From an uncultured Bacteroidales bacterium (GTDB taxonomy: Bacteria; Bacteroidota; Bacteroidia; Bacteroidales; UBA4417): 64,000 nt of DNA. This document shows, piece after piece, positions 684 to 64,000 of this stretch. The first letter of the stretch is position 1; every line of letters begins with the position of its first letter. The notes beneath the pieces are model-generated. The model saw only the letters and a program-made list of their open reading frames with translations. It did not search any database and had not been told where the DNA came from. The position numbers and the translations under genes are program-made. The stretch spans positions 18,150 to 82,149 of the forward strand of contig CAIPFN010000080.1 of assembly GCA_903864265.1 (NCBI GenBank), in the 5' to 3' direction.

Positions 684-688
684 TCTAC

Positions 689-900
689 CCTCTTCTCCTT
701 GTCCCCCTTTCTCCTTGTCCCCTTGTCTCAAATCAATCCAATCAATCTCTTCAATCTCTTCAATCCTATCTCACACTACCCTATCTTCCAATCCATCACT
801 ATCCTCTTCTCCTTGTCCCCTTGTCTCAAATCAATCCCATCAATCTCCTCAATCTCTTCAATCCCATCTCACACTACCCTAACCTCCAATCCATCACTAT
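689..900 (+). repeat. G-poor CT/CA-rich tract made of two tandem units (689-802 and 803-900)
   Basis: Unit 2 repeats unit 1 (cctcttctccttgtcccc...ccaatccatcactat) minus a 16-nt internal duplication. It shares a 24-nt identical string (831-854) with the reverse complement of 45094-45117. Confidence 0.9.
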
Positions 901-932
901 TCACTATTCACTATTCACTTTTCACTATTCAC
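895..932 (+). repeat. heptanucleotide tandem array (CACTATT)n, 5 units
   Basis: Exact period of 7. On the minus strand it reads TGA ATAGTGA..., so the Omp28-like gene stop codon (931-929) is part of the array. Confidence 0.95.
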
Positions 933-1843
933 TGTCTTACAGCAGTTTCCGCTGCCTGCAATACTTCCTTGGTATCAATATCATAAACAAAGGCTACCAC
1001 ATGGCAGTTTTTAGGAACCATGGCATTGGGATTAAAACCGGTAAAATGAACCTGGAAAGTATTGATAACAGGAGCTGAAGAGGTATTGTCTTTCGACAGA
1101 ACCGGCGTGCCCCAGGTGCCATTCACTGCGCCGCGCATCACATGCATATGCACATAATCGAGTATATAGGGCGTGGTGCCTACCGTAGCATCGCCATTGT
1201 ACTGCGCCTGAACAATGCTGTCCTCGGTAAGCACTACCGAGAGATTTAATCCGCGGCCGGTAAGGGATTCGGGGAAACTTGTTTTTACATGCACGCACAA
1301 CTTATCATCGGCAGCACTGTATTCGGTAATCAGCTGTAAATCCATCAGAGGGGCTTCGGTCAACGCGCTCTTAACGCCATCGGCCCAGGCCGAGGGTTTG
1401 GCTACCTGCTTGTTTTCGGGATATCCCTTGCGGCACACCATGCCATTGGGATTACCGAGATTACCTACTTTAAAGAAGTCGTCCCAGGCTGTGCCTTGCG
1501 CGGTACGGAAATCGTAATTCCATACCGGGTCGCCGGCATTCACATTGGCAAACCAGCCTGCATGAACGGCTATCACTACCAATGAGTCTTTGTACTGTTC
1601 TTTCAGGTCGCGGGCAATAAGCCCGGCCCTGGGGCAATTAGGGCAGGTATGCCCGGTATAGTCTTCGAGCAGTACATGTTTAAAATGGGCCGTCACAGCC
1701 GGAAATTCCGGAACGGGGCAGGCCGCGGTATCCACCGGCGCATTGCGGATTACATAGGGGGCATCCACTTTATCGCAGGAAACAAGCAGAAACAAAGCCG
1801 CTGCTGCCAGAAGTAAGGAATTCAGATATTTTGAGTTTGTCAT
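929..1843 (-). CDS. Omp28-related outer-membrane lipoprotein, thioredoxin-like with CPNC motif
   Basis: Lipoprotein signal (LLLAAAALFLLVSC|DK). The segment LLEDYTGHTCPNCPRAG resembles the EEFTG-x-x-C-x-x-CP region of the Omp28-related family. Confidence 0.7.
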   Translation of the reverse strand: MTNSKYLNSLLLAAAALFLLVSCDKVDAPYVIRNAPVDTAACPVPEFPAVTAHFKHVLLEDYTGHTCPNCPRAGLIARDLKEQYKDSLVVIAVHAGWFANVNAGDPVWNYDFRTAQGTAWDDFFKVGNLGNPNGMVCRKGYPENKQVAKPSAWADGVKSALTEAPLMDLQLITEYSAADDKLCVHVKTSFPESLTGRGLNLSVVLTEDSIVQAQYNGDATVGTTPYILDYVHMHVMRGAVNGTWGTPVLSKDNTSSAPVINTFQVHFTGFNPNAMVPKNCHVVAFVYDIDTKEVLQAAETAVRQ

Positions 1844-5686: not shown

Positions 5687-6544
5687 ATGAGCGGGAACCC
5701 CGAGAAACCTTTACGCAAACCCGGCTGGCTGAAAATCAGCCTTCCGAAGGGCGATAACTTCCTTCAGGTGAAAGGCATACTCGAAGTAAAGGGTTTGCAT
5801 ACTATCTGCTCCAGCGGCAAATGCCCCAATATGGGCGAATGCTGGAATGCCGGCACGGCTACCTTTATGATCCTTGGCGACATCTGCACCCGGAGCTGTA
5901 AATTCTGCGCCACCCGTACCGGGAAACCTTTACCTGTGGATGTGGACGAGCCGGGGAAAATTGCCGATTCGGTCAGGCTTCTGAACCTGAAACATGTGGT
6001 TGTCACTTCCGTTGACCGGGATGATTTACCCGATGGAGGAGCAGCCATCTGGGCAGAAACAGTCAGGAAAGTGAAAGAAATGAACCCCGGTATTACCATT
6101 GAAACCCTTGTTCCCGACTTTTGCGGAAATGCGGCTCAGCTTCAGCAGCTTATTGATGCTGCCCCGGATATTATTTCGCATAACCTCGAAACGGTCCGCC
6201 GCCTGACACCCCGGGTACGCAGCGCCGCTCAGTATGATCGCAGCCTGGAAGTGCTGCGGCAAATTGCTGCTTCGGGTCTGAAAGCCAAATCGGGCATCAT
6301 GCTTGGCCTGGGCGAAACCGAAGCCGAAGTGCTGGAAACTATGGATGATTTGCGGAAGGTGAACTGTGGTATTCTTACCATAGGGCAGTACCTGCAACCT
6401 TCGAAAGCACACCTTGAAGTGGCTGAATATATACACCCTGAGCAGTTTGAAAAATACAGGCTAGCCGGGTTGGAGAAAGGATTCAGGCATGTGGAAAGCA
6501 AACCTCTGGTAAGGAGTAGTTATCATGCAGAGAAACATGTTTGA
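5687..6544 (+). CDS. lipA: lipoyl synthase
   Basis: Radical-SAM CxxxCxxC (CTRSCKFC) plus the auxiliary-cluster Cys region (CPNMGEC). The ATG at 5687 gives a normal length of about 285 aa. The track start at 5612 is a GTG extension. Confidence 0.95.
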   Translation: MSGNPEKPLRKPGWLKISLPKGDNFLQVKGILEVKGLHTICSSGKCPNMGECWNAGTATFMILGDICTRSCKFCATRTGKPLPVDVDEPGKIADSVRLLNLKHVVVTSVDRDDLPDGGAAIWAETVRKVKEMNPGITIETLVPDFCGNAAQLQQLIDAAPDIISHNLETVRRLTPRVRSAAQYDRSLEVLRQIAASGLKAKSGIMLGLGETEAEVLETMDDLRKVNCGILTIGQYLQPSKAHLEVAEYIHPEQFEKYRLAGLEKGFRHVESKPLVRSSYHAEKHV

Positions 6545-6590
6545 TGTGGGATGTGGAATGTCGGATGTCGGATGTATGATTTCGGATGTT
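6542..6590 (+). repeat. heptanucleotide array (GGATGTS)n, 7 units
   Basis: TGATGTG GGATGTG GAATGTC GGATGTC GGATGTA TGATTTC GGATGTT. The first three bases are the lipA TGA stop codon. Confidence 0.95.
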
Positions 6591-7430: not shown

Positions 7431-7442
7431 TCTTTATTCCTA

Positions 7443-7515
7443 CATCACACATCCGAAATCCGAAATCCGAAATCCGACATCCGACATCCGACATCCGACA
7501 TCCCACATCCGACAT
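7443..7515 (-). repeat. heptanucleotide array (GGATGTS / GGATTTC)n in inverted orientation, 10 units
   Basis: The plus strand reads CATCACA CATCCGA (AATCCGA)x3 (CATCCGA)x3 CATCCCA CATCCGA with an exact period of 7. It starts 13 nt after the lipB stop and ends 18 nt before the LOG start. Confidence 0.95.
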
Positions 7516-9971: not shown

Positions 9972-10116
9972 TGTTCAATAATATAAAGCTAAGGTACAGG
10001 TTTTAAACTGGTTTTTCTTAAAAATCAGGATTCACTAATTTGTTATTTCGGATCCATCTTGTCAATCAGCAGAATATCTGCAAAAAGAAATTGAGGTTTC
10101 ATAAGTAACCTCTTAA

Positions 10117-10158
10117 CATCCCACATCTGACATCCCACATCTGACATCCCACATCCTA
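10117..10158 (-). repeat. heptanucleotide array (GGATGTG/GGATGTC-type), 6 units
   Basis: The plus strand reads CATCCCA CATCTGA x3. The last unit, CATCCTA, contains the TAG stop (10158-10156) of the dCMP deaminase gene. Confidence 0.95.
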
Positions 10159-24398: not shown

Positions 24399-24440
24399 CA
24401 ATTGCAGTCATGCCCTTTAAGGCTAATTTCTTATTTAGTA

Positions 24441-24520
24441 TCCAACATCCGACATCCAACATCCAACATCGCAGATCAAACTTCGCAGATCCGACATCCG
24501 ACATCGCAGATCCGACATCA
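24441..24520 (-). repeat. heptanucleotide array (GGATGTY / GATCTGC variants), 11 units, directly after the sufB stop
   Basis: Minus strand: TAA TGA TGTCGGA TCTGCGA TGTCGGA TGTCGGA TCTGCGA AGTTTGA TCTGCGA TGTTGGA TGTTGGA TGTCGGA TGTTGGA. The period is exactly 7 throughout. Confidence 0.95.
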
Positions 24521-25969
24521 TTAACCCACGCTTCCCTCGAGGCTGATGGCTAAAAGCTTTTGTGCTTCAACGGCAAATTCCATTGGTAAATGCATCAGTA
24601 CTTCCTTGGCATATCCATTCACGATCAGGCCTATGGCGCTTTCGGAACTGATACCGCGTTGCTTGCAATAGAAAAGCTGGTCGTCCGAAATTTTGGAGGT
24701 GGTAGCTTCGTGTTCAATGATGGAGGTATGGTTTTCGGCTTTGATATACGGATAGGTGTGAGCCCCGCATTTATCGCCCAGCAGCAGCGAATCGCACTGG
24801 GAGAAATTACGGGCATTTTCAGCCCTCTTGATCACCTTAACAAGCCCCCGGTAGCTGTTGTTGCTTTGCCCGGCCGAAATGCCTTTTGAAATAATGGTGC
24901 TTTTGGTATTCTTGCCCAGGTGTATCATTTTCGAACCGGTGTCGGCCTGCTGGAAATTGTTGGTTACCGCCACCGAATAAAATTCGCCCACCGAATTATC
25001 ACCCATCAGCACCACGCTGGGATATTTCCAGGTGATTGCCGATCCGGTTTCCACCTGGGTCCAGGATATTTTGGAGTGACTTCCCTTACAGATACCTCGT
25101 TTTGTAACAAAGTTATAAATACCGCCTTCGCCTTTTTTATTGCCGGGGTACCAGTTTTGAACGGTGCTGTATTTAACTTCGGCATCCTTCATGGCTACAA
25201 TCTCCACGATGGCGGCATGCAGCTGGTTTTCGTCACGCATAGGAGCCGTACATCCTTCCATATAGCTCACATAAGCACCTTCGTCGGCTACAATCAGGGT
25301 ACGTTCGAACTGACCGGTATTTGCCGCATTGATGCGGAAATAGGTCGATAATTCAACCGGGCAGCGCACTCCTTTGGGGATATAACAGAACGAGCCATCG
25401 CTGAAAACAGCGGAATTGAGTGCGGCAAAGAAGTTATCGTTGCTTGGCACCACGCTGCCCATATATTGTTTAACCAGTTCCGGGTGATTCTGTACCGCAT
25501 CGCTGAAGGAACAAAAAATCACTCCATATTTTGAAAGCACATCCGTAAAAGTAGTTTTGACCGATACGCTGTCGATTACTGCATCAACGGCTACCCCGCT
25601 CAGTTTTTTCTGCTCCTCGAGCGATATGCCCAGCTTATTGAAGGTCTCAATCAGTTCAGGATCCACTTCATCAAGGCTGCTGAGTTCTTTTTTACGTTTA
25701 GGAGCGGCATAATATATAATATCCTGGTACCTGATAGGCGGGTGATGAAGATGGGCCCAGGAAGGCTCGGTAAGCGTAAGCCAGTGGCGATAAGCGCTGA
25801 GCCTGAACTCAAGCATCCAGCCCGGCTCATTCTTTTTGGCCGATATAAACCTCACCGTATCCTCACTCAGCCCCACCAGGGCCATATCCATCTCGATGTC
25901 GGTATAAAAGCCATACTTGTAATCGCTGTTGGTTACTTCTTCCAGTATATTATTCTGATCTTTTTCCAT
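24521..25969 (-). CDS. sufB: Fe-S cluster assembly scaffold SufB
   Basis: 482 aa with highly conserved SufB blocks ([41 protein letters not shown]). Confidence 0.97.
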
Positions 25970-40784: not shown

Positions 40785-41000
40785 GTGAAAATGTTTGAAA
40801 CAGATGATTATAACAGGTTCAGGCGTGCCGGCAGGCAGCCTGTAGAGCTTTGGCTCAAAAAGGTTATGGCTCAAAAGTTAAAAACGATTCATCAAAACCC
40901 GATAGTGGAAGACCTGGTATTTAGAGCAGAAGATTATGTCCATAGCAGCGCAATTGAGTATGCGGGCGTGAAAGGAATATTGTATATATTTGACGAATAA
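40785..41000 (+). pseudogene. C-terminal remnant of a RAYT / IS200-like (Y1) transposase
   Basis: QPVELWLKKVMAQKLKTIHQNPIVEDLVFRAEDYVHSSAIEYAG matches the conserved C-terminal block (...ELW....QK..YIH.NPV...V...EDY.YSSA..Y) of REP-associated tyrosine transposase-like proteins. The HUH/Tyr catalytic part is missing, and only frame-shifted traces lie upstream (about 40700-40784). Confidence 0.65.
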
Positions 41001-44559: not shown

Positions 44560-44611
44560 ATTGAATTCAGGAGGTAACTATGTGAAACGGGAAATGCTTG
44601 CCTTTTGATAA

Positions 44612-44709
44612 TGTGGGATGTGGGATGTTTGATGTGGGATGTGGGAACCCGGCACCTGGCACTTGGAACCTGGCACTTGGTACCCGGAACCCGGAACCCG
44701 GAACCCGGA
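44612..44709 (+). repeat. 14 contiguous heptamers: (TGTGGGA)x5 fused in phase to (ACCYGGN)x9 ending in (ACCCGGA)x4
   Basis: Direct count from 44612 shows the period-7 register is unbroken across the switch of motif family at 44646/44647. Confidence 0.95.
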
Positions 44710-45062: not shown

Positions 45063-45090
45063 GGCGCAAAGGTAAGGATTTATTGGAATA

Positions 45091-45200
45091 GGTGATTGAG
45101 GAGATTGATGGGATTGAGGAGATTGAGGGGGCGACAAGGGGACAAGGGGAGATTGATGGGATTGATGCGATTGAGGAGATTGATGGAGACAAGGTGAGGA
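45091..45200 (-). repeat. C-poor (plus strand) GATTGAKGR / GGGACAAGG low-complexity tract, homologous to 689-900 in reverse orientation
   Basis: The reverse complement contains ccccttgtccccttgtc and tcaatcccatcaatctcctcaatc. The latter is a 24-nt identity with 831-854. Confidence 0.9.
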
Positions 45201-45272
45201 TTGATGGATTTGAAGGGAGATTGCAATGTATTATACGGCATGACGGTTATCGATTTCATCGTCTGATTATTC

Positions 45273-45321
45273 CACATCCCACATCATACATCCCACATCA
45301 TACATCCGACATCCTAGATCT
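45273..45321 (-). repeat. heptanucleotide array (GGATGTG/GGATGTA-type), 6-7 units, right after the GT2 stop codon
   Basis: Minus strand: TAG GAGATC TAGGATG TCGGATG TATGATG TGGGATG TATGATG TGGGATG TGG. Confidence 0.95.
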
Positions 45322-57768: not shown

Positions 57769-58818
57769 ATGAGCCGGAAAATCACAGGTATGGAGTTCGG
57801 GATATATCTGCTTTTGTGGATTGTTCTGACTTTTTTTCTGTTATACCTGATCTTTGATTATCATGCGCCTTTTGTACAGCAATTTGTTGCCACACTGGTT
57901 GTTACAGGTTTTACCGCACTACCGGCTTACACCTCAGCCAAAATACTGGTCCCGAAGTTTCTGTACCATAAAAAAATTAAAATATTTATTGCCTTATTAT
58001 TGCTGATTGCCATTGTCAATACAATGCTAACTTATTTGATAGCCGGAGCATTTTATTTTTCACTGAGTGGGAAATCCATATTCAGGAGCATTGCCATTAT
58101 TCAGGTTGTTTCTTTGTCCTTTTTTATCATAAATTGTATTGTAATCGCAGTGAGCAGTGCAATTCAGATTATTATCGATCGCTTTGGCATGGAACAGCAC
58201 TTGCATGAAGTCGAAAATGAAAAAGTTAGCACAGAACTTGCCTTTCTGCGGGCTCAGGTAAATCCGCATTTTCTTTTTAATGTGCTGAATACTATCTACT
58301 TTCAGATTCAAAAGGAAAACAGTGAAGCCCGGAATTCGGTCGAGAAACTTTCGGAGATGCTGCGCTATCAACTGTATGAATGTACTTCCGATATGATTGA
58401 TATTTCGAAGGAACTGGCTTATATCGAAAATTATGTGGCTGTTCAGCAGCTTAGGATGGAAACCGGTACCGACCTGCAGTTGAAGATTCCTTCTGATATT
58501 GGCACATTTAAAATCGCCCCGCTTCTAATCCTTCCTCTGGTTGAAAACGCATTTAAATACATATCCAATTTTAAGGAACCGGCACATAACAAGCTTTATA
58601 TTGACATTCATACGGAGCAGGATTCACAATTTGTTGTTAAAGTATTAAATACATACAATTCGCTGGATCATACCGGGCAAATGCCCCATTCGAACGGACT
58701 TGGACTGCAGAATTTTGAGCGAAGGCTGGAATTGTTATATCCCGGTAAGCATACCATTGTCCGGAAACGTACAGAAAACACCTATGAAACAACCCTGAAA
58801 ATCCAATATCATGATTAA
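57769..58818 (+). CDS. sensor histidine kinase, LytS/YehU-type (His_kinase + HATPase)
   Basis: A multi-TM N-terminus followed by LRAQVNPHFLFNVLNTIY (LytS-type phosphoacceptor box) and an ATPase region. Confidence 0.85.
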   Translation: MSRKITGMEFGIYLLLWIVLTFFLLYLIFDYHAPFVQQFVATLVVTGFTALPAYTSAKILVPKFLYHKKIKIFIALLLLIAIVNTMLTYLIAGAFYFSLSGKSIFRSIAIIQVVSLSFFIINCIVIAVSSAIQIIIDRFGMEQHLHEVENEKVSTELAFLRAQVNPHFLFNVLNTIYFQIQKENSEARNSVEKLSEMLRYQLYECTSDMIDISKELAYIENYVAVQQLRMETGTDLQLKIPSDIGTFKIAPLLILPLVENAFKYISNFKEPAHNKLYIDIHTEQDSQFVVKVLNTYNSLDHTGQMPHSNGLGLQNFERRLELLYPGKHTIVRKRTENTYETTLKIQYHD

Positions 58819-59515
58819 CTGCCTGGTTGTAGATGACGAACCCATCGCCCGTGAAGGCATGATGGAATATGTAAGACAGGTCGATTATCTGAACGCGGTA
58901 GCCCAGTGTAAAAGTGCGGTCGAGGCCGCGGGTATGCTCCGAAAGAGCAATATTGACCTGATATTTATGGATATACAGATGCCCAAACTCAGCGGCATTG
59001 AGTTCGTAAAAGCATTGGCCGATCCTCCTCTTATCATTTTTACGACGGCCTACTCCGAATATGCTTTGGAAGGCTTTGAGCTGGATGTGGTTGATTACCT
59101 GCTGAAACCCATTTCGTTTGCCCGCTTCCTGAAAGCGGCCGAAAAGGCTCAAAGCTATCTGCACGCCAGGGATAAGGATGTAAGCATAAGTACTGATTTC
59201 TTTTTTATAAAATGCAACGGTAAAATTGAAAAAATAATTATGGCTGATGTTATTTACATCGAAGCCATGGCCAATTATGTCATCATTCATACACGACATA
59301 AAAAGTACATCACTTATCTCACATTCACGGGTATTGCCGGGCAGTTGCCTGCTCAGCTATTTGTGCGTATACACAAATCGTATCTGGTTGCCATTTCGGC
59401 TATTCAAACTATCGATGGCAATGAGGTGATCACGGGATCAATCCGGCTGCCGTTGAGTAAAAACTACAGGAATGAGGTGATGAGCCGTATAGAACCGAAA
59501 CTTTTCAAAAGATGA
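58811..59515 (+). CDS. LytTR-family response regulator
   Basis: A receiver domain (VVDDEPIARE ... DLIFMDIQMP) plus a C-terminal LytTR DNA-binding domain. It overlaps the kinase gene by 8 nt. Confidence 0.9.
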   Translation: MINCLVVDDEPIAREGMMEYVRQVDYLNAVAQCKSAVEAAGMLRKSNIDLIFMDIQMPKLSGIEFVKALADPPLIIFTTAYSEYALEGFELDVVDYLLKPISFARFLKAAEKAQSYLHARDKDVSISTDFFFIKCNGKIEKIIMADVIYIEAMANYVIIHTRHKKYITYLTFTGIAGQLPAQLFVRIHKSYLVAISAIQTIDGNEVITGSIRLPLSKNYRNEVMSRIEPKLFKR

Positions 59516-59541: not shown

Positions 59542-62064
59542 TTATAAAATATATCTGGAGGGTGGCTCAGCGGGTCTTTTGGTCATATGATTCATCACCA
59601 TACGAATCTCCCCGTAACTCACATCCTCTCCCAAAACAGCCTTGGCTTCAGTCAGCGAGGTGTTCTCTGTCCTGACAAAATAGGCCCTGATCATTCCGAT
59701 CTTCTCCAATGGGATTAGCTTTTCAATATCCAGCTCACCGCTGGCCACAAAGCCGGCGAGATGGCCCTCTATGGTTGATGGTGCATAGGCTCTCTGTCGG
59801 GCAATTTCGGAAATGGTTTTTCCTTCCAAAAACAGCTCAAGACTTAATCGCTGCGATTCGCCTTTGGGTTTTTGTTTCGAAACAGGTTTCTCAACCGGTA
59901 ATTCAGCATCCAGTTTGCTTAAATGAGTCAGCTGCAGATATTCCCGTATCATTCCTATAATCTCAACCCCGTATTTCTGAACTTTTTTCTTCCCGAAACC
60001 CTTGATCTCTTTCAACTCAGGGATGGTAACCGGCAGCAGCTCCGCCAGGTCATACATGGTTTTTTGCGGCAGCACCATGTATATTGGAAGATCTTCCTCC
60101 TCAGCCATAGCGTCGCGCCACTCCCTGATCTGCTGTAACAAGGGTGAATCCGATTTGCTGCCCGTCGGACCAGGGATTTTTAATTTTGATTCCGGCTTAA
60201 GCTGTATTTTTTCGATTCCGGCTTTGGCTTTCGCATCCAGGTAAATTTTAACCGTAAACCCGGCAATACATGCTTTAAAACAGGCCGATTTTATGAACGC
60301 TTCCTGGTAAAGTATTTCAAAACTATCCTTCAGCAGCATCCGGATGGCCTTGTTGTCGGTTTCTATATCTGTATTTTGCAGAACACGGCAAATATGCTCA
60401 TCGGTTTTTCCGGCAAAATAGGTACAGGCTTTTTTAATACGTTCCTGCAAAGCTTCATACCCTTCAATCATAGGCTGCGTCAGCAGAAACTGTCCGATCT
60501 GTGGCCTAAACTTATCGGCCACGCCTATCAGTTCCGTATTCATGGCATTATACATGCCGTTAAAGGCTTCGGCCAGAGCAGGCCGCAACACATGGGCATT
60601 TTCCTTAATCAGTTTCTGGCAATGGTAAAAGCGACGCAGAATCAGCGAGAAATCCAGCAACTCGGCCAGCAGGGTCTGCTGATAGGCAATGCGCGAAGCC
60701 AAAAGCTCTTTTTCACCCGGGGGATTCATTTCGGCTTCGTCCGAAAACCCTTTTACACTCACGTCGCTTTTAATACAGGTTTGGGAAATGGGCGAACTCA
60801 ATACCATCCCCTCAAAAGTCTTGCAACGACTCAGCGCCACATATACCTGCCCGTGGGCAAAAGCCGCATTGGCATCGATGATCGCCTTCTCAAAAGTTAG
60901 TCCCTGACTTTTGTGAATGGTAATGGCCCAGGCTAATTTTAAAGGATATTGTATGAATTTACCGATCACCGTTTCGGTGATTGCTTTGGTTTCCTCGTTA
61001 ATGGCGTATTTGTTGTTTTCCCAGGCCAGGGGCTCCACCGGAATAACAGCGTAATCACCATCGCATTTTACATAAATTATATCATCCTCTATACGGGTAA
61101 TTGTTCCTATTTTGCCGTTATAAAACAGCTTTTCGCGCGAAATGTCGTTCTTCACAAACATCACCTGTGCGCCTTTTTTCAGTACCAGGTCGAAATCGGT
61201 GGGGTAAGCGTATTCGGGAAATTCGCCTTCCACCTCCGCCTTAAAATGAAAAGCATGTCCCTTCAGTTGGTTCAGTTTGCTTTCGTTGATGGCATTCGAC
61301 TGGTAGTTGTGCGTGGTGAGGGTAATATAGCCTTCGTCAGTGCCGGGATTAAATCCGGGAATATACCGCTGGTTCAGGTCATCGAGCGACTGCCGGTCAA
61401 TTTTGTTGTCACGCACCTTGTTCAACAGGCTGATAAATACATCATCACTCTGACGGTAGATATGTTTCAGCTCAATGGTGGTGAAGTCGGTTTTTTGCAG
61501 GGCCCGGCTGCCGAAAAAGAAAATGGTGTCGTAATAGGGCCGGAGCATTTCCCATTCGTCGTCTTTGGCCACGGGGGCCAGTTGTTGCAGGTCGCCAATC
61601 ATAAGCAGCTGCACGCCTCCGAAAGGCTTGTAGCGGTCCCTGAATCTGCGCAATACCTCATCAATGGCATCCAGTAAATCGGCCCGCACCATGCTGATTT
61701 CATCAATCACCAGCAGGTCAAGACTTTTCATGATGTTTATCTTCTCGCGGCTGAAACGCTGTGCGCGGTCGAAGGCATTTTTCTGTATTTGAACGCTATC
61801 GCTGTTTGGCCGGGCATCCTGCTCCGGGATATGTGGCCCGAATGCCATCTGGAAAAACGAGTGTATGGTCACCCCACCGGCATTAATGGCCGCCACCCCG
61901 GTTGGAGCAACTACAATCATACGCTTGGGTGAAATGGTTTTCAGGTTGCGTAAAAAGGTAGTCTTGCCGGTTCCCGCTTTCCCGGTCAGGAACAGGTTGG
62001 TATTGGTTTGCTCCACAAAGTCAAACGCCAGTTGAAGTTGCAGATTCGGGATTTCCTGGGTCAT
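59542..62064 (-). CDS. PIF1/RecD-like SF1 helicase with C-terminal HRDC-like and HTH domains
   Basis: Walker A GKAGTGKTT, motif Ia VAPTGVAA, Walker B LVIDEISMV, GDLQQLAPV and TIHKSQGLTF. These are followed by an HRDC-like segment (LLQQIREWRD...VLPQKTMYDL...IKGFGKKKVQKYG) and an HTH-like tail. Confidence 0.85.
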   Translation of the reverse strand: MTQEIPNLQLQLAFDFVEQTNTNLFLTGKAGTGKTTFLRNLKTISPKRMIVVAPTGVAAINAGGVTIHSFFQMAFGPHIPEQDARPNSDSVQIQKNAFDRAQRFSREKINIMKSLDLLVIDEISMVRADLLDAIDEVLRRFRDRYKPFGGVQLLMIGDLQQLAPVAKDDEWEMLRPYYDTIFFFGSRALQKTDFTTIELKHIYRQSDDVFISLLNKVRDNKIDRQSLDDLNQRYIPGFNPGTDEGYITLTTHNYQSNAINESKLNQLKGHAFHFKAEVEGEFPEYAYPTDFDLVLKKGAQVMFVKNDISREKLFYNGKIGTITRIEDDIIYVKCDGDYAVIPVEPLAWENNKYAINEETKAITETVIGKFIQYPLKLAWAITIHKSQGLTFEKAIIDANAAFAHGQVYVALSRCKTFEGMVLSSPISQTCIKSDVSVKGFSDEAEMNPPGEKELLASRIAYQQTLLAELLDFSLILRRFYHCQKLIKENAHVLRPALAEAFNGMYNAMNTELIGVADKFRPQIGQFLLTQPMIEGYEALQERIKKACTYFAGKTDEHICRVLQNTDIETDNKAIRMLLKDSFEILYQEAFIKSACFKACIAGFTVKIYLDAKAKAGIEKIQLKPESKLKIPGPTGSKSDSPLLQQIREWRDAMAEEEDLPIYMVLPQKTMYDLAELLPVTIPELKEIKGFGKKKVQKYGVEIIGMIREYLQLTHLSKLDAELPVEKPVSKQKPKGESQRLSLELFLEGKTISEIARQRAYAPSTIEGHLAGFVASGELDIEKLIPLEKIGMIRAYFVRTENTSLTEAKAVLGEDVSYGEIRMVMNHMTKRPAEPPSRYIL

Positions 62065-62228
62065 TTGAAGCGTTTAGGATAAAATTTGGGGCGATTGGGT
62101 AAATTAAGTGATCAGAGGATGCACAGCATCTTTTGCCGGAATAAACAAGGCAGGGACAAATGCGTTCAAAACTAACTGAGCGAAAATACGAAATTATTCC
62201 GGATGGTCTTTGGGTCAGGGGTTAAAGA

Positions 62229-63168
62229 AATGAGGCAGAATTGGAGACCAGGGTTTTGGTAGGAGTGTGTCTGCACACCTGAGTGCCGGAAAACTCTGAA
62301 CTCAAGCACCATTTAGTTGCACGAAGGGTGTCTGACACACGTATCACGGCATCAGGCAGCCTGCTGTGTGTCTGTACACCTGAGTGCCGGGAAGGCCTGA
62401 ATTCAAGCGCCATTTAGTTGCACGAAGGGTGTCTGACACACGTATCACGGCATCAGGCAGCCTGCTGTGTGTCTGCACACCTGAGTGCCGGAAAACTCTG
62501 AACTCAAGCACCATTTAGTTGCACGAAGGGTGTCTGACACACGGATCACAACAGCATAAGTCAGACCCCAGTGTGTCTGCACACCTGAGTGCCGGGAAAG
62601 CCTGAACTCAAGCACCATTTAGTTGCACGAAGGGTGTCTGACACACGTATCACGGCTTCAGGCAGACATGCTGTGTGTCTGTACACCTGCGTGCGGGGAA
62701 AGCCTGAATTCAAGCACCATTTAGTTGCACGAAGGGTGTCTGACACACGAATCACGGCTTCAGGCAGACATGCTGTGTGTCTGTACACCTGAGTGTTGGG
62801 AAAGATTGAGTTCAAGCACCCTTTAGTTGCACGAAGGGTGTCTGACACACGGATCACGGCATAAAGCAGACCCCAGTGTGTCTGTACACCTGAGTGCGGG
62901 GAAAGCCTGAATTCAAGCACCGTTTAGTTGCACGAAGGGTGTCTGACACACGGATCACGACATAAGGCAGACTTTGGAGTGTTTGTACACCTGAGTGCGG
63001 GGAAAGTCTGAATTCAAGCACCATTTAGTTGCACGAAGGGTGTCTGACACACGGATCACGACATAAGGCAGACCCCAGTGTGCCTGTACACCTGAGTGCC
63101 GGAAAAGTCTGAACTCAAGCACCGTTTAGTTGCACGAAGGGTGTCTGACACACGAATCCGTGTGCACC
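62229..63168. repeat. tandem array of 9 units of 101-104 bp, each with two GTGTCTG-N-ACAC palindromic cores
   Basis: Unit starts are at 62265, 62366, 62467, 62571, 62673, 62775, 62876, 62977 and 63078. About 75 nt of each unit is conserved (GTGTGTCTGYACACCTGAGTGCSGG...CAAGCACCATTTAGTTGCACGAAGGGTGTCTGACACACG), followed by a ~25 nt more variable tail. Confidence 0.95.
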
Positions 63169-63220
63169 TATACCTTGATACCTGGCCTTCTGTTTAGCCT
63201 GGCATCCTCCAACCGCGAAG

Positions 63221-64000
63221 CTACTCAGCCGAATAATAATCCCGCGGAAGCAGATGGTTCAGGTTGGCAATCCCCAGCACGACTATAGCGGTAACTATGG
63301 AAGTATGTTCCTGGTATTCGGGGATGCTTTTGTTATACAGATCGCGTTCGGTGTGCCAGATCTCCCCATAATTGAAATTGTAGCCTTTAGTGTCTTCTGT
63401 CCCGAAGGTCATGGTGGGCACAGCTTCAACGGCAAATGAACCTGCATCCGTCCCGGCGGCAACCTTCGGACGGGGTTTCAATTCACGCTTTTTAAGCGTA
63501 AACGGGAAGTCGGAATTAATGCTGTTCAAGGGTTCACATATTTTCTCCACATCGTCCCACCAGGTTTCGGGCACACTCAGGCTGTTGGCTACGGTAGGCC
63601 CGCCGTCGCGGTTAAACATATTGGAAATATTTTTCAGCTTGTCAGGATTGCGTTTTACCCAGCTCTTCGAGCCCAACAGTCCGAACTCCTCGCCGGCCCA
63701 TAAGCAAACCAGTATGGTCCGTTTGGGTTTCCCGCCGGCTTTCATAATCATCCGGGCCGCTTCCATGGTAGGGGTGGCTCCCGAGCCGTCGTCCACGCCG
63801 CCGGTGCCCACATCATAAGCATCCAGGTGGCCACTCATCAGCACATATTCATCTGGGTATTTTGTACCGGGAATACTCCCGATCACGTTATAATATTTTA
63901 CCGGGCCCGGTTTAAAATGATTGCGGATATCGAATTCGAGGAAGAAATTCCTGCGCTCTTTCGTCATTTGTTCGATGGTGGCATATTGATGTTCGTCCAG
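63221..64000 (-). CDS. M28 family aminopeptidase (N-terminus outside window)
   Basis: The frame stays open through 64000. The metal-ligand contexts SGHLDAYDVGTGGVDDGSG and WAGEEFGLLGS are typical of M28 peptidases. Confidence 0.85.
   Translation of the reverse strand: MDEHQYATIEQMTKERRNFFLEFDIRNHFKPGPVKYYNVIGSIPGTKYPDEYVLMSGHLDAYDVGTGGVDDGSGATPTMEAARMIMKAGGKPKRTILVCLWAGEEFGLLGSKSWVKRNPDKLKNISNMFNRDGGPTVANSLSVPETWWDDVEKICEPLNSINSDFPFTLKKRELKPRPKVAAGTDAGSFAVEAVPTMTFGTEDTKGYNFNYGEIWHTERDLYNKSIPEYQEHTSIVTAIVVLGIANLNHLLPRDYYSAE

Follow-up and report, generated by a model that had tools for sequence, protein, structure and literature searches.

The spacer between two genes of an uncultured Bacteroidales bacterium is for the most part filled by a tandem array of repeats whose ends can pair with one another, and the locus raises the question of what kind of element such an array is. 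The original prediction, which was made from the 64-kb stretch of DNA analysed here (the window), proposed either a REP/BIME-like cluster or an array of structured RNAs, and set CRISPR aside. From the analysis below, the array is probably a BIME-like cluster composed of REP-type palindromes, in which a unit consisting of a palindrome doublet and a linker of ~25 nt has been reiterated nine times head-to-tail and partly homogenised. The homology of the arms, their association with RAYT genes in relatives, the tandem habit of the palindrome family and the absence of the array from orthologous spacers are all directly documented, and together they carry this reading.

Tandem Repeats Finder reported a single strong tandem array, at 62265–63158 (period 101, 8.8 copies, 88% matches, score 1302). 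Searches with the arm sequences and an alignment of the units resolved this array, on the plus strand, into nine units that all run head-to-tail, starting at 62265, 62366, 62467, 62571, 62673, 62775, 62876, 62977 and 63078, with periods of 101, 101, 104, 102, 102, 101, 101 and 101 nt. The nine units and the spacings of the original prediction were recovered in this way, and the array itself stood, whereas its proposed start at 62229 did not, since the first unit begins only 36 nt downstream of this position. Every unit has a 5′ arm (L), GTGTGTCTG(C/T)ACACC, and a 3′ arm (R), GGTGTCTGACACAC. For unit 1 (62265–62365, 101 nt) the L arm occupies 62265–62279, the R arm 62326–62340 and the tail 62341–62365. 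The same arm searches and alignment delimit units 2 (62366–62466, 101 nt), 4 (62571–62672, 102 nt), 5 (62673–62774, 102 nt) and 7 (62876–62976, 101 nt). The tail is most divergent in unit 3 (62467–62570, 104 nt), where it contains a 3-nt insertion, and the head is most divergent in unit 6 (62775–62875, 101 nt; 87–92% identity to the other heads). Unit 8 (62977–63077, 101 nt) has a degenerate L arm, GAGTGTTTGTACACC, and unit 9 (63078–63153, 76 nt) consists of a head only, with the L arm GTGTGCCTGTACACC and an R arm that closes the array, after which unique flanking sequence begins. The R arm GCACGAAGGGTGTCTGACACAC is exact in nine of nine units and the L arm GTGTGTCTGYACACCTGAGTGC was found with 0–2 mismatches, while both arms had no occurrence in 100 dinucleotide-preserving shuffles. 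Along the array, L and R variants alternate over 18 arms, and the linkers alternate between 47 nt, which is the separation of the L arm GTGTGTCTGYACACC from the R arm GGTGTCTGACACAC within a unit, and ~25 nt. Within each arm there is a near-perfect palindrome of 11–12 bp, GTGTCTG(C)ACAC, at 18 sites in the array; because every arm is itself palindromic, alternating orientation is not strictly scorable.

The array lies in a spacer of 1156 nt (62065–63220), in agreement with the 1.16-kb gap described earlier between an M28 peptidase gene and a gene for a PIF1-like helicase on the same strand. Both genes are on the minus strand: the peptidase gene is represented by its 3′ part (63221–64000, running past 64000; Pfam PF04389, E 1.9e-29), and the helicase gene (59542–62064) encodes 840 aa with HRDC and HTH_40 domains (Pfam PF05970, PF00570 and PF14493). 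A distance of 62 nt separates the peptidase stop codon from the array downstream of it, and the helicase start codon follows 200 nt beyond the array. On the plus strand the arms come in the order L, R and are antisense to both flanking genes. A protein-coding array was rejected, since the reading frame is not kept over periods of 101, 102 and 104 nt, and the ORFs within the array are short artefacts of the repeat frame. With CRISPR arrays the locus shares regularly spaced, partly palindromic repeats. However, its would-be spacers, the tails, are related to one another (54–100% identity, two of them identical), which is why the claim that this is not a CRISPR array holds; the repeat, moreover, would be 76 nt long, and the larger ORFs annotated in the window are unrelated to CRISPR.

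Alignment of the nine units showed that they differ at 32 of 105 columns, in a consistent mosaic, with the variable sites concentrated at positions 22–37, at position 47 and in the ~25-nt tail. Columns 48–77 form a block, TTTAGTTGCACGAAGGGTGTCTGACACACG (62312–62341 in the unit 1 copy), which is invariant in all nine units and which includes the R arm and its CGAAGG half-loop. Set against random placement of the 32 variable columns, an invariant run of 30 nt has a permutation p of 5e-5, and outside this block the units have diverged by up to 13%; the block is among the remaining oddities of the array. The identical heads of units 1 and 3 and the identical tails of units 1 and 2, which had been noticed before, were both seen in the alignment. 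The clean super-period of ~202 bp that had been read from them was not, as similarities of heads and tails are discordant: units 1 and 3 have tails that are only 56% alike, and units 1 and 2 have heads that are 91% alike. This disagreement points to exchange between units, through conversion or unequal crossover, and not to a simple 202-bp super-period. Separately, a 16-nt identity was observed between the unit interior and 25800–25815 of the window; it does not extend and was taken as chance.

To place the arms among related sequences, one genome per GTDB species was scanned for two arms 30–55 nt apart. This yielded 24 loci, all of them in Lentimicrobiaceae or in unclassified Bacteroidales MAGs. 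In all, 34 full copies of a basic element were collected from about 29 loci in at least 14 MAGs, and all of these are located at gene ends or between genes. The consensus of the 34 copies is an element of ~30 nt (30–32), A-GTGTCTGCACAC-CCGMAGG-GTGTCTGACAC-T, with the apex CC-GCA/GAA-GG and the preceding context (T/A)(T/A)(T/A)A. Of these copies, 26 have A at position −1, and T and A prevail at positions −2 to −4; an A/T-rich TTTA precedes the element, which starts with GTGT; a conserved 5′ GT[AG]G (or CGTC) foot was absent from the 34 copies. Folded as single-stranded DNA, the consensus reaches −10 kcal/mol (z −4.1), and in some copies the apical stem is preserved by compensatory changes (ACACGC/GCGTGT, ACACTC/GAGTGT and ACAGC/GCTGT). 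In 19 of 27 clusters, a stop codon is found ≤12 nt outside or ≤27 nt inside the cluster; at inverted copies, the upstream ORF continues across 27 nt of the element and ends with a TAA on its far side, and between convergent genes several clusters take the form of inverted pairs. Tandem reiteration of half-elements or whole elements is very frequent, with periods of 19, 20, 22, 26, 28, 29, 32, 41 and 43 nt. The density of arms is low, at ~1 non-RAYT cluster per 85 kb in the protein-anchored loci of RAYT-bearing relatives, and the 64-kb window contains two arm loci.

The array unit and the family elements share exact identities of 16–17 nt, which cover the arms and the loop-proximal bases (GTGTCTGCACACCTGA and CGAAGGGTGTCTGACAC), and these identities show the array arms, as judged from sequence, to be members of a palindrome family that is dispersed in Lentimicrobiaceae-like Bacteroidales. 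The unit differs from the basic element in the unique 47-nt interior between its arms, and no identity to family elements was found for the unit's 39-nt interior or its tail. Neither the genome scan, which returned single-match loci only, nor the metagenome scan revealed the 101-nt unit a second time. The latter, run with GCACGAAGGGTGTCTGACAC, gave one match (L025), on a high-GC contig that is unrelated and is therefore regarded as a chance match. A viral scan for arms 3–30 nt apart, a gap that suits the basic element and not the array unit with its 47-nt gap, gave 0 matches, and a literature search for the arm sequences returned chance primer matches only.

The second arm locus in the window, at 554–621 on the plus strand, agrees with the solo copy of the arm pair that had been reported. 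It is a REP doublet that resembles a REPIN in forming a long hairpin, with the arms GGTGTCTGTACACC and GGTGTCTGACACC separated by 41 nt and an apical ATCC-GAA-GGAT mini-hairpin. As single-stranded DNA it folds to −21.8 kcal/mol (z −6.27; 0 of 200 shuffles were equally good), and this near-perfect long hairpin is much better than those of the array units.

A screen of small ORFs beside the clusters pointed to a partner protein. At L020:3310–3894, a 194-aa protein gave a borderline match to Pfam Y1_Tnp (22.8 bits) and a match to NCBIfam NF047646, the REP-associated tyrosine transposase (E 1.5e-13; 50.8 bits, which is below the equivalog cut-off of 80). In this protein the HuH motif reads NHFHF and the Tyr motif reads YLHQNP, and its gene is flanked by an element in plus orientation ~235 nt upstream and by two inverted elements 23 nt downstream. 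A protein search found >3000 homologues, mostly of ~193 aa, several of which carry the JGI name 'REP element-mobilizing transposase RayT'. In 27 homologues, NHFHF and Y[LVI]HQNP show no or almost no variation. A PDB search with the single RAYT sequence gave no significant match; a profile of 27 members had a single PDB match, E. coli TnpA_REP 4er8 (E 7.4e-4), in which the HuH and Tyr motifs were aligned. Three further homologues, L029 (GCA_038204995.1), L030/L031 and L032/L033, are flanked alike, with palindromes of one orientation upstream and of the other downstream. As these three loci were fetched by protein identity, they were not ascertained through the repeat. A half-element array (28 nt × 7) directly follows the RAYT gene of L029, and an array of 19 nt × 7 precedes that of L032.

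RAYT genes flanked by inverted palindromes were found, in sum, in four independent Bacteroidales loci (L020, L029, L030/31 and L032/33). The check suggested alongside the original prediction, namely whether intact RAYTs are flanked by the same palindromes, has a positive answer in these relatives, and the proposed link between a REP/BIME-like cluster and RAYTs is upheld: the arms of the array are the motifs that flank RAYT genes in the four related loci, and tandem reiteration of these motifs is common in the palindrome family. Judging by its motifs and genomic neighbourhood, the family's cognate enzyme is a HuH/Tyr (Y1) transposase of ~193 aa, of the RAYT/TnpA_REP type. By its layout, a RAYT gene placed between inverted palindromes is the REPtron arrangement, which was reportedly described by Ton-Hoang et al. 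It is also described by Quentin et al. (PMC6006769) and by Nunvar et al. (PMC2817692).

Comparison with known systems shows where this family agrees with the classical cases and where it departs from them. Like the REP/BIME sequences of Enterobacteria and Pseudomonas, it consists of short imperfect palindromes dispersed at gene ends, and as in a REPtron, the RAYT gene lies between inverted palindromes; as in BIMEs, two REP variants are joined by linkers that are long and short in turn, and the whole is repeated in tandem. REP copies typically number >100 per genome and are dispersed and extragenic, and BIME-2 of E. coli reaches up to about 12 REPs. The present elements differ from REP/BIME sequences in that they have no GT[AG]G or CGTC tag, with an A/T-rich TTTA before the element instead, in that the arms of the array doublet are parted by a unique 47-nt interior, and in that the host belongs to a Bacteroidales lineage and not to the Enterobacteria or Pseudomonas. 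In contrast to classical BIMEs, the array has a long unit (101 nt), and its units all run head-to-tail instead of strictly alternating in orientation. Large REP clusters have been described as dimers reiterated in tandem together with flanking DNA (Di Nocera et al., PMC3733652).

REPINs are REP doublets that form long hairpins (Bertels & Rainey 2011, PMC3116915), and both the solo copy at 554–621 and each head of the array correspond to them in having two inverted REP-like arms around a spacer and in being capable of folding as a single long hairpin. In contrast to REPINs, however, each arm is here itself palindromic, by which the distinction between direct and inverted orientation is blurred, and the spacer is unpaired in the array unit whereas that of the solo copy is paired. 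The closest counterpart on the protein side is the Bacteroidetes-dominated RAYT subclass 2.6 (NH[LIV]H and YIH[QN]NP), which has atypical flanking structures that lack GT[AG]G and recur elsewhere in the genome (PMC6006769). This subclass (Quentin et al. 2018; group 5 of Bertels et al. 2017) shares the host phylum with the present family and has a comparable HuH motif (NHxH; here NHFH) and a comparable Tyr motif (YIH[QN]NP-like; here Y[LVI]HQNP). Its flanking structures without GT[AG]G (PMC6006769) are alike by description, and the length of ~193 aa and NHFH would suit subclass 2.4 as well. Since the GT[AG]G foot is absent from the REPs of both subclass 2.6 and class 3 (Quentin et al., PMC6006769), it defines the canonical classes and not all RAYT-associated palindromes.

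The orthologous site was then compared between relatives. Helicase orthologues 73–79% identical to that of the window were found in partly conserved local synteny (aldehyde dehydrogenase, M28 peptidase, helicase, LytTR response regulator and histidine kinase). Upstream of the helicase orthologue, the spacer measures 191 nt (L026) and 178 nt (P0003 contig), versus 1156 nt in the window; in L034 it contains a small gene and reaches 450 nt, and in L035 it reaches 600 nt. No arms were found in the orthologous spacers that were readable, three of the four. L034 and L035 share contigs with the RAYT loci L029 and L030, which means that even relatives bearing REPs are without an array at this site; the helicase orthologue that shares its contig with the RAYT of L029 is 75% identical to that of the window. 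Because the syntenic relatives have no array and short spacers, the array is, by this comparison, lineage-specific.

The other proposal of the original prediction was an array of structured RNAs. In that case each unit of ~100 nt would be transcribed, possibly from the plus strand and antisense to the flanking genes, and would form a functional stem-loop such as an sRNA or a protein sponge. This reading derives some support from folding. As RNA, the arms form a 76-nt hairpin with z −2.7 on the plus strand and z −2.6 on the minus strand; four of six substitutions in predicted pairs are compatible with G-U pairing on the plus strand, an inner position pair (26/31) varies between A-T, G-C and G-T, and the 30-nt block does not vary across units. 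The predicted stem-loop of ~76 nt per unit nevertheless stood only as far as the pairing of its arms: the structure is held by the arms alone (17–23 pairs), the ~33-nt interior being essentially unstructured, and as single-stranded DNA the 76-nt head folds to −11.7 kcal/mol with z −1.26. The Rfam and RNAalifold checks proposed for the array turned out negative. Over the whole window Rfam gave no match at the gathering score, and over 62000–63300 a search at E ≤ 10 brought up nothing but noise; among the nine units, 0 of 23 RNAalifold pairs showed a change on both sides, with a covariation term of −0.17 kcal/mol, and the 4:1 wobble bias is not significant. A scan for sigma-70 promoters and intrinsic terminators, which does not cover Bacteroidetes promoters, found none inside the array. 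In addition, the arms are the sole parts conserved beyond this genome, where they are DNA motifs that flank a transposase gene. With no Rfam match, no compensatory change and folding marginally above that of shuffled sequences, the array of structured RNAs is unsupported, and we regard it as very unlikely.

Some features would also suit a platform of duplex DNA, such as a centromere, iterons or an operator array, where a dimeric protein independent of any transposase would bind the 18 palindromes. Each arm is nearly a perfect palindrome and has the size that dimeric HTH proteins bind, the spacing of the sites is regular, and genes for LytTR response regulators adjoin family members at L003, L009, L020 and L032 and are present in the window at 58811–59515. 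However, LytTR systems are very numerous in Bacteroidota, so that such adjacency is expected by chance, and the consistent partner of the family is the RAYT gene. The elements also lie at the 3′ ends of unrelated genes and not in promoters, partition or replication genes are absent nearby, and the compensatory changes keep the hairpin while its sequence changes, which favours a folded single strand over a fixed duplex site; a binding platform of this kind is highly improbable. Equally little probability attaches to the notion that the unit is real and the nine-copy array in part an artefact of assembly, with the copy number or the order of the units wrong. The window does come from a metagenome-assembled contig, its relatives are all MAGs, and short-read assemblers have difficulty with 0.9-kb repeats that are 88% identical. 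On the other side, the mosaic of differences among the units provides unique paths through the array, unique flanks join it to both genes in the syntenic order of the relatives, and comparable REP-derived tandem arrays are present in independent assemblies.

For the BIME-like cluster, a course of events can be proposed by analogy with E. coli TnpA_REP and the IS200/IS605 enzymes, whereby single-stranded DNA at replication forks would let the palindromes form hairpins, which a RAYT would bind, cut and rejoin there. Growth and homogenisation of the cluster could, again by analogy, have come about through slippage, unequal crossover, gene conversion between units or the RAYT itself. With enterobacterial BIMEs as the model, effects on the host are plausible: the array may attenuate transcription that reads through from the peptidase into the helicase gene, and may likewise protect the 3′ end of the upstream mRNA or bind nucleoid proteins. 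That the array is a selected, working element and not inert amplified REP DNA seems unlikely to us. If it were one, the 30-nt block could, given its invariance, be the recognition and cleavage site of a non-GTAG RAYT, and the array could serve as a multi-copy substrate or donor for the dispersal of REPs; alternatively, its plus strand could be transcribed into a multi-hairpin RNA.

These results assign a concrete sequence family, described by its consensus, its A/T-rich flank, its placement near stop codons and its tendency to tandem reiteration, to the 'atypical' REPs that accompany RAYTs of Bacteroidota and have been little characterised. One lineage has expanded a doublet of this family into a 0.9-kb cluster, which is unusually large and is built of an unusually long unit. 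The finding opens no new category of biology, as this is a known kind of selfish or structural DNA. It is of use for annotation, where arrays of this type may otherwise be miscalled as ORFs, CRISPRs or RNA genes, and it provides a candidate REP/RAYT pair for biochemistry that is both non-proteobacterial and non-GTAG.

An intact RAYT gene was not found within the 64-kb window. The dead RAYT-like gene proposed at 40785–41000 proved to be, at most, a weak relic of ~30 aa from the region of the Tyr motif (…KTIHQNPIVEDLV…YVHSS…; 40878–40973, plus strand), located in a 71-aa ORF at 40785–41000, and the position of the catalytic Tyr is occupied by Thr. This possible relic is the best tblastn match in the window for all four RAYT queries (E 0.016–0.16), with a pairwise E of 2e-5 and an E of 0.1 to NCBIfam REP_Tyr_transpos. 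Pfam had no matches to the 71-aa ORF or to the neighbouring small ORFs, and L or R arms were not found near the relic. The Thr-bearing relic, the invariant block, the lack of a GT[AG]G foot and the TTTA and stop-codon context are odd, yet they stay within the REP/RAYT framework. The abutment of stop codons beside TTTA/TAAA could conceivably reflect a target-site rule like the TTAC of IS608; to our knowledge, such a rule has not been described for RAYTs. As a further observation, the window and the MAG clade have in common, along with the palindrome family, heptamer arrays of the GATGTSG type.

The placement of stop codons relative to the REP-like palindromes was noted for both orientations of the element, at four loci from related Bacteroidales MAGs (L001 7727-7877, L003 4516-4599, L010 6289-6435 and L017 4566-4736). 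Where the gene upstream of a palindrome was in the opposite orientation to it, its ORF ran 27 nt through the element and ended at a TAA beside the L arm, and the last ~9 codons of such a gene are therefore REP-encoded. Where the palindrome was in direct orientation, its first G was abutted or overlapped by the stop codon (TA|G). Taken together, these placements suggest that the palindrome inserts beside TTA/TAA.

Tandem arrays of half-palindromes were found directly adjoining the gene for the REP-associated tyrosine transposase (RAYT) at two loci, with seven copies of a 28-nt unit (GCTGTGTGCAGACACCCTTCGGGAGGCC) at L029 10589-10828 and seven copies of a 19-nt unit (TGAATGGTGTCAGCACACC) at L032 9753-9885. 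LytTR-type response-regulator genes were recurrent neighbours of palindrome clusters or of the RAYT gene (L003 1318-2028 and 3803-4516, L009 5957-6706, L020 3997-4743, L032 10697-11452 and window 58811-59515), an adjacency that is probably due to chance because such systems are numerous in Bacteroidota.

Besides the palindromes, a second simple-repeat family abuts stop codons, namely heptanucleotide tandem arrays of (GATGTSG)n and its relatives. In the window these lie at 626-681, 894-933, 6543-6589, 7438-7515, 10116-10156, 24440-24519, 44611-44646 and 45272-45314, 0-8 nt from ORF stops (929, 6544, 7430, 10156, 24521 and 45323). The same heptamers were present in Bacteroidales MAG loci (L003 85-138, L004 2290-2405, with 16.6 copies, and L014 867-912). 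Heptamer arrays also adjoin two composite simple-repeat blocks, at window 688-933 (including two copies of a 98-nt unit at 709-900) and 45090-45314 (with 9-, 18- and 48-nt units at 45090-45223). These blocks are apparent mutual reverse complements (…CCTTGTCTC…CAATC… versus …GATTG…GAGACAAGG…) and may represent a further dispersed intergenic repeat family.

A 16-nt exact match to the interior of the nine-unit array's repeat, AGCCTGAACTCAAGCA, was located at window 25800-25815, within an ORF at 24521-25969, with no similarity beyond these 16 nt. Finally, a tandem array of ~12.6 copies of a 21-nt unit (GGTCGTGTACGTTGC…), unrelated in sequence to the arms, was located at L021 2663-2944, with a palindrome doublet ~220 nt upstream.
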